Virus record (IMG/VR): IMGVR_UViG_3300047510_001256
Span: 64,001-128,000 of that record
DNA: 64,000 bases
Source: a virus
Strand: one strand, 5' to 3'
Shown here: positions 34,152 to 44,134 of the stretch, piece by piece
Layout of the letters: the number at the start of each line of letters is the position of its first letter
Position numbering within the stretch: the first letter of the stretch is position 1
Position numbers and translations under genes: made by a program
The notes under the pieces: generated by a model
Seen by the model: the letters and a program-made list of their open reading frames with translations, nothing else
Database searches by the model: none
Told to the model about the DNA's origin: nothing

Positions 34152-34652
34152 TTATGTTGACCATAAAGCACCTTCTGCTTTTCTTCTTCTCATCAGTCCT
34201 GCTTCTACCTTAGTGCCAGGATTACGATACAACGCTAATGCTCCTGGAACATCATTCCATCTTCCAGATTGTAATGCCTGAGTGATTGTTTTGAAGTCAG
34301 GACTTCCATAGAAGTTAGCGCCAAGATTATAAGCAAAAGATAATAGTGCTCCTCGTTTCTTATCGCTCATCTGATCCCAGTAAGGAATCTTTTTCAACTT
34401 AGGAATGAACTGAGTTTTGATTTGATTAATTAAAAGATCATCTGCTTCTTTTTGTGTGATCTTATCAGTAATTTTAAATGGTTTCCCATCAAAGTTTCGT
34501 GTGCTTCCCCATCCTATGGTGATAGGAAGTCCTCCAGTGTATGGATCGTAGTAGGCATCTAATTCACATCCCTCAAATTCCTTAATTAAAGCAACACCAA
34601 CCAAAGGAACTTCATCAGGATTGTTTGCCCGATTGGAATTTATGGTTGGCAT
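34152..34652 (-). CDS. GH24 phage lysozyme (endolysin domain)
   Basis: LIKEFEG, AYYDP, TIGWG, ALLSFAYNLG, GLMRRRKAE. Confidence 0.93.
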   Translation of the reverse strand: MPTINSNRANNPDEVPLVGVALIKEFEGCELDAYYDPYTGGLPITIGWGSTRNFDGKPFKITDKITQKEADDLLINQIKTQFIPKLKKIPYWDQMSDKKRGALLSFAYNLGANFYGSPDFKTITQALQSGRWNDVPGALALYRNPGTKVEAGLMRRRKAEGALWST

Positions 34653-34654
34653 GT

Positions 34655-35353
34655 CTACTTTTTTGCTTCAAAGATTCTACCCCAACCATCACTACCTTTG
34701 GGACACCATCGCTTCGCCAGTTCAGATCTCTTATACACAGCACCCTTGCCATTGGTTACGGGTCCAGTATAACCATCGTTGAGAGAACCATATGGATCAT
34801 TCACAACATAGTCTTCACCTTTCTTACCAATAACTACAGCCATGTGCCCACCAGTAGGAGCAGATAAAGGACCACGATGATAGAACCCGATAACAACAGG
34901 TCTCCCAGCAGCAAGCTGACGATCAAGTTCGGCAAAATTAAGATTATACTCAAAGCGTGAATCAATTCCAAAGTCTTTAAGAACTTTGGTTTGAACTGAG
35001 TGATCAGTTGAGTCGCCAATAGCGAATACCTTTCTAACATAGGCATCATCTCCCTTGGGACCAGGCAATGATCCTGGTTTGAAATACTCTAGTGCCATAG
35101 CACAGGCAGATGAATTACAGGTTCTCTGGGCATCTCTGTAGTTATCTGTCTGTGGAAAGAATGGCACATCTAATACTGATGGCACTGCTGGAGCTACTGC
35201 TTTTTCTCTGAATGTTTTAACCCACTCAGCAGTATCTTCCATTTCTTCTGGTGCCTTTGCTTCAAGCACCTTCTCAAGTAATTCTACTCCAGCAATATGC
35301 TTTGGATTCTTTTCATCGTAATGCTTAAAAAAGTTATGTAAATCAATTTTCAT
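34655..35353 (-). CDS. C39-like cysteine peptidase (putative endolysin) with N-terminal domain
   Basis: FPQTDN..RTCNSSACAM (Cys), GGHMAVVIG (His), VNDPYG (Asp); ends in A_AAA_AAG_TAG. Confidence 0.88.
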   Translation of the reverse strand: MKIDLHNFFKHYDEKNPKHIAGVELLEKVLEAKAPEEMEDTAEWVKTFREKAVAPAVPSVLDVPFFPQTDNYRDAQRTCNSSACAMALEYFKPGSLPGPKGDDAYVRKVFAIGDSTDHSVQTKVLKDFGIDSRFEYNLNFAELDRQLAAGRPVVIGFYHRGPLSAPTGGHMAVVIGKKGEDYVVNDPYGSLNDGYTGPVTNGKGAVYKRSELAKRWCPKGSDGWGRIFEAKK

Positions 35354-35687
35354 TTTTGTCTCCAAATAATTGAATGTAATACTCTGCGTCTACTACAACT
35401 AGTGGTTTCTTACCATTCTTTTTCATAATAACAATAGGTTCATAGTCACCACAATTAGCGGATGCCTGTTCATATGCTTCCCAGATATTTAGTTTCTCCA
35501 CATTTTTACATTCAATGCTGTGAGGAAACTTTGACCTAGCAGCACGAGCCATAATGAGATCTTCTCCACCAGCACCCATGCTACGTGATTCAATATCTTC
35601 TGGATGAACATCAAGCATCTCAATGAGTTTATCTCTCACCCATTGTTGAAGTCTACGTCCCTTTGCCTTTGCCGATTGTGGGCGCAT
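35343..35687 (-). CDS. PD-(D/E)XK Holliday-junction-resolvase-like nuclease
   Basis: SAKAKGRRLQQ, GEDL, SIECKN; late-like ATAAATA at 35712-35718. Confidence 0.8.
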   Translation of the reverse strand: MRPQSAKAKGRRLQQWVRDKLIEMLDVHPEDIESRSMGAGGEDLIMARAARSKFPHSIECKNVEKLNIWEAYEQASANCGDYEPIVIMKKNGKKPLVVVDAEYYIQLFGDKNEN

Positions 35688-42918: not shown

Positions 42919-43173
42919 TTATTTATCCTTTTTATTCTTTGCTTTCCAAGCAGTAGCATATGCGATTGACTTTTCCTTGTCGGATAGTCCATCCTTAGAG
43001 TAACCTTTCTTAATATGCTTCACCATTCTTTCATACTTTTTGCCGGGAGGTGCCTTCTCTTCAATAGGTTCTACTTCTTCTTTCTTAACAGATGCCTGCT
43101 TGATATACTTTTTGTGATCAGATGATGACTTTTTATATTCCGCAGAATTTTCGTTTGGAATATTAGGCATCAC
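42919..43173 (-). CDS. Basic module, probably the C-terminal part of a -1 frameshift fusion with 43179..43901
   Basis: KAPPGKKYERMVKHIKK...IAYATAWK; in the -1 frame and open from the slippery site. Confidence 0.75.
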   Translation of the reverse strand: MMPNIPNENSAEYKKSSSDHKKYIKQASVKKEEVEPIEEKAPPGKKYERMVKHIKKGYSKDGLSDKEKSIAYATAWKAKNKKDK

Positions 43174-43178
43174 CTCAA

Positions 43179-43901
43179 CTACTTTTTTGCTTCTTCAATC
43201 TCCTGACGAAGTTCTGCTTCTTCCTTCATTGCCTTCTTCTTATTGATGACGGCACTTACTTTCTTACGACGGGCATGTAGATACTTGTCAGACTTGTCAT
43301 GATCACCATCGTTATCAATATCCTTATCTTCTTTACCTACAGGATCCATCTTCTCAGTGATGATCTCTTCAGCAAGAATTCTATCTGCGAAGTATTCAAC
43401 ATCCTCTTTCTTCATTGGAACGCACTTGTCCTTTCCATTCTCAGTGCCAGCATACTTATATCCTTTCCAGCAAGCCTTGCCGTCAGCACCTTTCTCTTTC
43501 TCAAGAACGAGAGTATAGTTATCAAACTCAATCTCATACATCTCTTTCTTCATCATCTTCTTCCAAGAAGACTTCTTATCCATCTTCTCTCCCTTCCCTT
43601 CCTTCTCACCCTTGCCATGCTCAGGACCGCAAGATTCATCCATCTTCTTCTCGCACTTAGAGCAACCCTTACCATGACAGGATTCACATTCTTTTTTGTA
43701 TCCCTCTGCTGTTACGCCAGGAGCAGACTCCATGCCAACATACTTGGTGGGTTTTTTAATTTCTTTCTTTTTGAGAGTAGTATTCTCAATCTCTGCGCCA
43801 TGAGATTGTGGATCCATTCCATCAAATACTTCTGCTACATCTACAGGTTTGCCAAGGAAACTTGACATAAGGGATTCAGTAAGAGCGTCTCTTTTTGCCA
43901 T
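43179..43901 (-). CDS. Highly charged late protein, putative head-internal/prohead-core-like
   Basis: K/E-rich; CWKGY and DIDNDGD modules; late promoter TATAAATA at 43928-43935; ends in A_AAA_AAG_TAG. Confidence 0.75.
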   Translation of the reverse strand: MAKRDALTESLMSSFLGKPVDVAEVFDGMDPQSHGAEIENTTLKKKEIKKPTKYVGMESAPGVTAEGYKKECESCHGKGCSKCEKKMDESCGPEHGKGEKEGKGEKMDKKSSWKKMMKKEMYEIEFDNYTLVLEKEKGADGKACWKGYKYAGTENGKDKCVPMKKEDVEYFADRILAEEIITEKMDPVGKEDKDIDNDGDHDKSDKYLHARRKKVSAVINKKKAMKEEAELRQEIEEAKK

Positions 43902-43930
43902 TGTATCTAAGTGTGTTCTTCGTTTATTAT

Positions 43931-44134
43931 TTATACTTCTCGGATATCTTTAACCCAAGCGCGGAACATCTCTCCCTCCTCAGTGACAGCAATCACATAG
44001 TTAACTCCACTACGATGGATTGTTCCCGTTTGACCAGTCGTATTAGACATGATCACATCTCCCTCCTGAAAGATACCTTTGTGTCTGTATCTCTGGTGAG
44101 TTGATTCCTGTCTTAGTTGTTTAAAATTTTTCAT
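43931..44134 (-). CDS. Small conserved protein (SH3/KOW-like)
   Basis: FQEGDVI...GTIHRSGVNYVI. Confidence 0.78.
   Translation of the reverse strand: MKNFKQLRQESTHQRYRHKGIFQEGDVIMSNTTGQTGTIHRSGVNYVIAVTEEGEMFRAWVKDIREV

Follow-up and report, generated by a model that had tools for sequence, protein, structure and literature searches.

The stretch of DNA analyzed here, referred to below as the window, is 64,000 nucleotides (nt) long and corresponds to positions 64,001 to 128,000 of the IMG/VR virus record IMGVR_UViG_3300047510_001256. This report concerns the junction between two adjacent open reading frames (ORFs) on its minus strand, encoding proteins of 240 and 84 amino acids (aa), at which a -1 ribosomal frameshift had been proposed in an earlier note made from the sequence alone. 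The layout given in that note was confirmed: the 240-aa ORF (43901..43179) ends GAA GCA AAA AAG TAG, a 15-mer that holds a slippery heptamer at 43188-43182; the -1 frame is continuous with the ORF 42919..43173; an AGGAG string resembling a Shine-Dalgarno (SD) site is found at 43204-43200, 11 nt upstream of the heptamer; and RNAfold predicts a two-tier hairpin that begins 6 nt downstream and buries the start of the second ORF. The features of the junction are listed below.

43179..43901, minus strand: 0-frame gene, encoding the putative short isoform of 240 aa (ORF reading)
43182..43188, minus strand: slippery heptamer A_AAA_AAG in the X_XXY_YYZ phase of the 0 frame, the candidate shift site (from the sequence; invariant in 32 distinct relatives)
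43179..43181, minus strand: 0-frame stop codon TAG, adjoining the heptamer and overlapping the -1 frame Val codon GTA
42919..43188, minus strand: -1 frame coding region of the predicted long isoform, KK-VVEVMPNIP..., 89 codons, which includes the 84-aa ORF 43173..42919
43200..43204, minus strand: SD-like AGGAG, candidate 5' stimulator, 11 nt upstream of the heptamer
43120..43175, minus strand: two-tier hairpin (RNAfold), candidate 3' stimulator, starting 6 nt past the heptamer

Read from the heptamer, the -1 frame begins AAA AAA GTA GTT GAG GTG ATG and runs without a stop for 89 codons, as far as 42919. The fusion predicted from a shift would be 327 aa long (238 + 89), the last 87 residues being the tail beyond KK, and would contain the peptide VVEVMPNIPNENSAEYK, the first residues of which are impossible in a product initiated at GTG or ATG. 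The 84-aa ORF (43173..42919) has possible starts of its own at GTG 43173 or ATG 43170, 6-9 nt past the TAG. When the 75 nt after the heptamer were folded, the outer stem paired AGGTGATG (43175-43168) with CATCATCT (43127-43120) and the inner stem paired ATATTCC (43163-43157) with GGAATAT (43141-43135), giving a predicted stability of -15.2 kcal/mol (z = -2.7 relative to dinucleotide shuffles). The outer stem of this predicted structure takes in the GTG and ATG of the downstream ORF. Taken alone, the heptamer shows no excess in the window and is slightly rare if anything (16 seen, 24.7 expected); the unusual feature is its context and not the heptamer itself.

Related loci and the conservation of the heptamer

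The region is kept in T4-like cyanophages (Kyanoviridae), and we compared 7 loci from GenBank with 80 from IMG/VR obtained by an alignment scan with the upstream protein. Each locus was traced from a conserved Ca-loop-like motif to the stop codon, and 69 were readable. Close relatives of the window were retrieved by protein look-ups; tblastn against phages gave few matches owing to low-complexity filtering, two truncated loci were all that a scan of IMG/VR with a single protein returned, and a pattern scan of IMG/VR for the zero-spacer junction of the window returned no match.

The readable loci fall into two main types. Type A comprises 33 of the 69 (32 distinct sequences), including the window, S-PM2, Syn1, S-CAM1, S-CAM3 and Sf-CH11; the gene ends ...E-x-K-K and an in-phase A_AAA_AAG lies at the stop codon or one codon before it. 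The stop adjoining the heptamer is TGA in 16 distinct sequences, TAA in 12 and TAG in 1, and in 3 it comes one codon later. Type B comprises 28 loci, including S-WAM2 and S-RSM4, in which the upstream gene ends ...MK(G/K)KK with an ATGA start/stop overlap and the downstream ORF has its own ATG, followed by an N-terminal stretch of 25-30 residues (MKSFKQLREECGCKDKERK...) and then by VEVMP, which is internal there. This overlap is absent in the window, where TAG is followed 6-9 nt on by GTG ATG. The remaining 8 loci are paralogues that share the Ca-loop motif only.

The nucleotides of the heptamer vary far less than the codon usage of the same ORFs. The terminal Lys-Lys pair is encoded by AAA AAG in all 32 distinct type-A sequences, compared with 29 of the 337 Lys-Lys pairs found elsewhere in these ORFs. 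The codon before the pair is GAA in 28 sequences, GGA in 2, GTA in 1 and GCA in 1, so that four amino acids are represented and the third base is always A. In the 29 sequences with an adjacent stop, the -1 codon overlapping it is always GTA or GTG (Val), and in the TAA and TAG forms that codon is unable to act as a start. The X_XXY_YYZ phase is therefore conserved beyond what the protein sequence requires, which indicates that the heptamer is selected at the nucleotide level.

A divergent relative on the IMG/VR contig 3300038369_000018 (L061:1749-3116) has A_AAA_AAG followed by TAA, with a G/C-rich hairpin (GGGGGGA/TCTCCCCC) 5 nt past the heptamer. Its 456-codon -1 ORF had no match in Pfam, and the same signal may there append a much larger protein.

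Coding signature of the -1 frame

The -1 frame of every type-A locus remains open over 34-456 codons; the +1 frame never exceeds 18. VEVMP lies 3, 4, 7, 8, 9, 19 or 20 codons from the heptamer according to lineage, always in the -1 phase; the chance that six independent indels would all be in phase is about (1/3)^6. When 22 sequences were aligned, positions 1 and 2 of the V-E-V codons that precede the ATG proved invariant, single Ile substitutions aside, with the variation sitting at position 3 of the -1 frame (GTY GAR GTN). At the heptamer, the columns of highest entropy switch from third positions of the 0 frame to those of the -1 frame. In half of these sequences GAG has become GAA, which turns the GAGG before the ATG into GAAG and removes the only SD-like string there, so that no SD is conserved.

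The -1 ORF of L058 (54 codons, with VEILP) contains no ATG, GTG or TTG and retains the family sequence. In L043 and L045 the sequence NEACGCDDK, homologous to the type-B N-terminus, sits behind a GTA codon that is not a start. Purifying selection was found on both parts of the split gene in type-A sequences. From the shift site on, the -1 frame remains open and shows the evolution expected of coding sequence.

Candidate stimulators

Each of 31 distinct type-A sequences is predicted to fold more stably than its dinucleotide shuffles (mean z -2.6), and the stem starts 6-7 nt past the heptamer in all 31, with stems that differ between lineages. The covariation analysis proposed in the earlier note gave double changes at four pairs in the S-CAM3 class and at one in the window class, and none in the Syn1/S-PM2 class. 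The S-CAM3 class hairpin has 15 pairs, 94.8% paired over nine distinct sequences; its score was attained by 1 of 500 shuffles, and sliding one partner by 1-3 columns lowered the pairing to 32-62%. All five sequences of the window class, which are close relatives, retain the inner stem, with one double change from U-A to A-U, and a codon insertion has not abolished the outer stem. For the Syn1/S-PM2 class, the string CTGGC, the partner of GCCAG, survives indels and the use of Pro, Ala and Thr codons, each ending in CT. A search of Rfam matched no family and returned only chance-level snoRNA matches far below gathering scores.

On the 5' side, GGAG is present at -15..-12 in all 16 distinct sequences that share the tail type of the window. 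The codon before it varies (AAG, CAG, GCG, AGG, GGG or ATG) and always ends in G.

Natural fusions and module shuffling

The two parts of the gene also occur as a single ORF. P0008 is a natural in-frame fusion of 338 aa found on 10 contigs, the 6 shown coming from 6 different samples, and its gene neighborhood is the same as that of the window. Its residues 1-206 are 66% identical to the 240-aa protein (E-value 5e-99), and residues 214-302, which follow EKK-SS, are 65% identical to the -1 product of the window (E-value 3e-33). The junction is 4 nt longer, with TCTTCGG in place of TAG, and is therefore not a miscounted A run. A second and more distant in-frame fusion, P0178, is 419 aa long. In addition, a DUF6321-like module lies inside the upstream ORF in 28 further homologues and a DUF3008 module lies inside it in P0050. 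These arrangements suggest that the modules belong in one polypeptide with the upstream protein.

DUF3008-like and DUF6321-like modules are thus seen either in the downstream ORF or within the upstream ORF, depending on the phage, and the pattern indicates that small modules are shuffled within this protein family. The fused relative (L093-L098, junction near 2120 of L093) retains GAA AAA AAG and has lost the upstream GGAG (CAA GAG). Because its -1 frame reaches a stop four codons further on (KKVFG-stop), a slip there would yield a short form, the reverse logic, as in dnaX.

Proposed mechanism

The likely explanation for these observations is a programmed -1 ribosomal frameshift of the dnaX type, giving 240-aa and 327-aa forms of a late protein. 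The two isoforms predicted in the earlier note are strongly supported by the conservation of phase, the coding signature, the start-less ORF, the fusions and the covariation. A ribosome translating the late gene would reach A_AAA_AAG with the two Lys codons in its P and A sites, and some ribosomes would slip one base back onto AAA AAA. Those that slipped would read GTA (Val) across the 0-frame stop and carry on in the -1 frame to produce 327 aa, and the remainder would terminate at TAG to leave the 240-aa form. The stop beside the heptamer, the hairpin 6-7 nt downstream and the GGAG 11 nt upstream are the likely stimulators.

The tRNA background is consistent with such a shift. The psbA gene of the phage is 92-94% identical to psbA of Cyanobium and Synechococcus genomes, and Synechococcus MIT S9451 (psbA 92%), which served as a stand-in host, gave 43 tRNA matches in its complete genome, among them a single tRNA-Lys(UUU); tRNA-Lys(CUU) was absent. 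The phage genome itself encodes 17 tRNAs in two clusters, including one tRNA-Lys(UUU) at G000:C1:37295-37366, outside the window, and again no tRNA-Lys(CUU). A_AAA_AAG is most shift-prone when tRNA-Lys(UUU) is the sole tRNA-Lys (PMC5009743). The phage tRNA-Lys(UUU) is the tRNA that would slip at this junction and at the peptidase-lysozyme site described below.

Several observations weigh against frameshifting here. The type-B sister clade (28 loci) makes the downstream protein from its own ATGA-coupled start; because the module is expressed separately there, fusion is not required for its function. The downstream ORF of the window has its own GTG and ATG, and independent initiation may add to the frameshift. 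As to the stimulators, the hairpin models were built from the same sequences that were used to count them, the Syn1/S-PM2 class hairpin has no double changes, and the SD-like box of that class is only 7 nt from the heptamer, a spacing outside the range known to favor -1 shifts; L061 has no such box. The tRNA set is that of MIT S9451, a stand-in rather than a proven host.

It is unlikely that the junction simply separates two ordinary genes, with the second started at GTG 43173 or ATG 43170 or by termination and reinitiation, and with the heptamer a mere Lys-Lys tail. The GTG ATG lies 6-9 nt past the stop in the window, the sister clade uses a separate, ATGA-coupled start, cyanobacteria often initiate without an SD, and all GenBank records examined annotate two genes (e.g., S-PM2p142/143 and Syn1_163/164). 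What such an arrangement leaves unexplained is the invariance of the heptamer and of the preceding third base relative to codon usage in the same ORFs, the -1-frame coding signature upstream of the ATG, and the seven spacer lengths that are all in phase. Nor does it account for the downstream ORF of L058, which has no ATG, GTG or TTG, or for the existence of in-frame fusions; moreover, half of the relatives have GAAG in place of the GAGG ahead of the ATG, which leaves no conserved SD, and the predicted hairpin sequesters the ATG.

The long form could also arise by normal translation if RNA polymerase added one A to some of the mRNAs, which would give the same protein as a -1 ribosomal shift, but transcriptional slippage of this kind is distinctly unlikely. 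Productive slippage is known from longer runs, of about 9 or more A/T, and the runs here, 6 A in the window type and 7 A in most relatives, fall short of that threshold. The G at position 7, the strict 0-frame phase, the conserved hairpin and the GGAG are features of ribosomal shifting, and a stand-in host with only tRNA-Lys(UUU) likewise favors the ribosomal route, even though Thermus dnaX uses transcriptional slippage (PMC5009743). The shift would more probably be made by ribosomes than by RNA polymerase. Finally, a broken gene or assembly error, in which a once-fused gene was split by a 1-nt homopolymer indel, is very improbable despite the fused relative P0008 and a break at an A run, since 32 distinct sequences, obtained from isolates and from many metagenomes, share the split and use three different stop codons among them, both parts are under purifying selection, and the fused junction differs by 4 nt (TCTTCGG for TAG) and not by one A.

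A second site in the same genome

The 15-mer that closes the 240-aa gene has exactly two copies in the window, at 34655-34669 and 43179-43193, both on the minus strand, where shuffles gave an expectation of 0.02. The copy at 34655-34669 ends a C39-like peptidase gene (35365..34655), and its -1 frame leads into a GH24-type lysozyme.

34652..34152, minus strand: lysozyme ORF downstream of the first copy of the 15-mer

In S-PM2 the corresponding lysin junction reads GAT GCA AAA AAG TAA, and no start codon precedes the catalytic motif of the lysozyme, which is annotated there as a 73-aa truncated lysin. The in-phase heptamer is kept at the peptidase-lysozyme site in 59 of 80 IMG/VR relatives. No report of a frameshift at this site was found in the literature searched.

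The earlier note had taken the two loci as evidence of a reusable recoding cassette in genes ending EAKK-stop, and this proposal stood only in part. The second site is itself conserved, but the flanks outside the 15-mer share nothing between the two sites and no further convincing locus was found. A scan of this genome found no A_AAA_AAG at an ORF end beyond the two. Five complete relatives were scanned as well, and they contain 17 AAAAAAG-stop strings in all; counting as a fit a long 0-frame ORF joined to a long -1 ORF, the present locus fitted in all five and otherwise the S-PM2 lysin only. Apart from the window itself, only its close relatives (L099-L104) have the EAKK ending at this locus; EEKK or TEKK is found in most of the others. 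A stop right at the heptamer is the rule but not obligatory, as it comes 1-5 codons later in 7 of 36 distinct heptamer-bearing loci, L102 and L103 included. A genome-wide family of such EAKK-stop cassettes was rejected, given only two sites here and the outcome for the 17 strings in the five relatives. The identity of the two 15-mers looks like convergence on one shift signal plus some chance, and not like a mobile or homologous cassette.

Three other sites were noted. The sole weak extra candidate in the scan was S-CAM3 (L202) 193526, where AAAAAAG TAA ends a 110-codon open frame with 64 open codons in the -1 frame. In the present genome, a T_TTT_TTC lies in phase near an ORF end at G000:C1:51054-51767 (minus strand, outside the window) with 65 open -1 codons, and a G_GGG_GGT lies in phase near an ORF end at 1516-1869 of the window (minus strand) with 88 open -1 codons leading into an hli gene that has its own ATG. 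The last two sites are probably ordinary gene overlaps.

Promoter, neighboring genes and protein modules

The 240-aa gene is preceded by a putative late promoter.

43928..43935, minus strand: T4-type late promoter box TATAAATA (motif), 27 nt before the ATG of the 240-aa gene

The sequence NATAAATA occurs 33-45 nt before the start codon in 12 of 12 related loci searched, which makes the label of late gene given in the earlier note a reasonable one. Its neighbors comprise a ligase-like and a cytidylyltransferase-like gene, together with a 67-aa ORF and a gene for a virion structural protein.

The 240-aa protein is a viral-only, K/E-rich chain of short modules, among them CxxC pairs, a CWKGYK...C module and the DxDxDG Ca-loop-like motif (DKDIDNDGDHDKSD). 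Notes in GenBank place the gene in T4-like gene cluster 842/1080, and the protein matches PHROG 4359, a family of unknown function (E-value 3e-43). Searches of PHROGs with both window proteins matched only families of unknown function, and Pfam had no match for either the 240-aa or the 84-aa protein. The Atlas model of the 240-aa protein is of low confidence, with a predicted local distance difference test score of 0.52. The appended tail ends in a DUF6321-like module (KYERMVKHIKKGY...AYATAWK); its Sf-CH11 homologue is a DUF6321 domain protein in GenBank, and the S-PM2 tail carries a DUF3008 module instead.

Just upstream of the 240-aa gene lies the 67-aa ORF (43931-44134, minus strand), which starts MKNFKQLRQE. 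This start resembles the T4 capsid-targeting leader and the N-termini of the type-B downstream proteins, and the ORF is the only one in the genome with a capsid-targeting-like start. Its homologues are named NrdB or 'possible cytitidyltransferase' in GenBank, which looks like mis-annotation.

The type-B leader MKSFKQLRE also resembles the T4 capsid-targeting sequence, and one doubtful extension of the frameshift model can be built on that likeness. The frameshift would load the start-less module into the prohead on a head-internal polyprotein, from which the prohead protease would free it at the conserved V-x-E/VMP junction; speculatively, V-V-E/VMP would fit a prohead-type cleavage site. In this speculation the sister clade would use the module's own T4-like leader instead (MKSFKQLRE, cf. 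T4 MKTYQEFIAE), and the heptamer of the fused lineage would work in reverse, dnaX-like, to give the short form (KKVFG-stop). If the capsid-cargo model were true, the slip rate would set the dose of one injected peptide.

Comparison with known frameshift sites

In E. coli dnaX an SD-like box lies about 10-11 nt upstream of the shift site and a stem-loop 6 nt downstream, positions that correspond to those of the candidate AGGAG and the predicted hairpin of the window. The heptamer of dnaX, which yields tau and gamma, is the same A_AAA_AAG and depends on a single tRNA-Lys(UUU) (PMC5009743). The proteins differ and have no sequence relation, and the outcome is opposite: in dnaX the shifted frame stops at once and gives a shorter product, whereas at the present site the 0 frame stops at once and the shift would give a longer one.

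Other bacterial and phage sites show part of the same design. A -1 frameshift at CGA AAG in Bacillus subtilis cdd was reported by Mejlhede, Atkins and Neuhard in 1999 (listed in PMC5009743). There the A_AAG shift reportedly occurs at the gene end by the stop, with an upstream SD-like stimulator, and leads into the next ORF, as it would here; it is said to lack a full heptamer, to be of low efficiency and to be usually deemed incidental. Unlike cdd, the present site has a full heptamer, a predicted hairpin and a downstream coding frame, all of them conserved across a phage family. In T7 gene 10A/10B and lambda G/GT, a late gene produces mostly a short form and, by a -1 shift near the gene end, a smaller amount of a form extended at its C-terminus. 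The proteins concerned (a capsid protein in T7, a tail assembly chaperone in lambda), the shift sites and the genomic context differ from those of the present gene, which lies between the cytidylyltransferase-like and virion structural protein genes and not between tail tube and tape measure genes as G/GT does.

A further parallel is the cyanomyovirus peptidase-lysozyme site, which belongs to the same phage family and occurs in the same genome in S-PM2 and in this phage. Both sites have A_AAA_AAG right before the stop with GTA or GTG as the -1 codon, and the lysin domain is often start-less. The genes are unrelated, and what the shift would append differs: at the lysin site an enzyme domain that lysis requires, and here a small module which a sister clade produces on its own. 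Searches of the literature on frameshifting in cyanophages and Synechococcus phages, on S-PM2 genes and on the heptamer brought up no publication describing a frameshift at this gene. Frameshifting of this kind is itself well known, and the present site would be a conserved and unannotated example of a dnaX-type -1 frameshift.

Implications for T4-like cyanophages

The two neighboring genes, each labeled 'hypothetical', most likely form a single recoded gene that yields two products, in which case annotations and gene-cluster tables would have to be corrected for a phage family that is abundant worldwide. With the lysin site added, T4-like cyanophages would have two conserved A_AAA_AAG-stop frameshift sites, which would make the ribosomes of marine and freshwater picocyanobacteria a natural system for dnaX-type shifting. 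The gene pair is found in three states, linked by the putative frameshift, coupled through ATGA, or fused in frame. Such a natural series is rare, and lets one ask why a fixed ratio of short to long product is selected.

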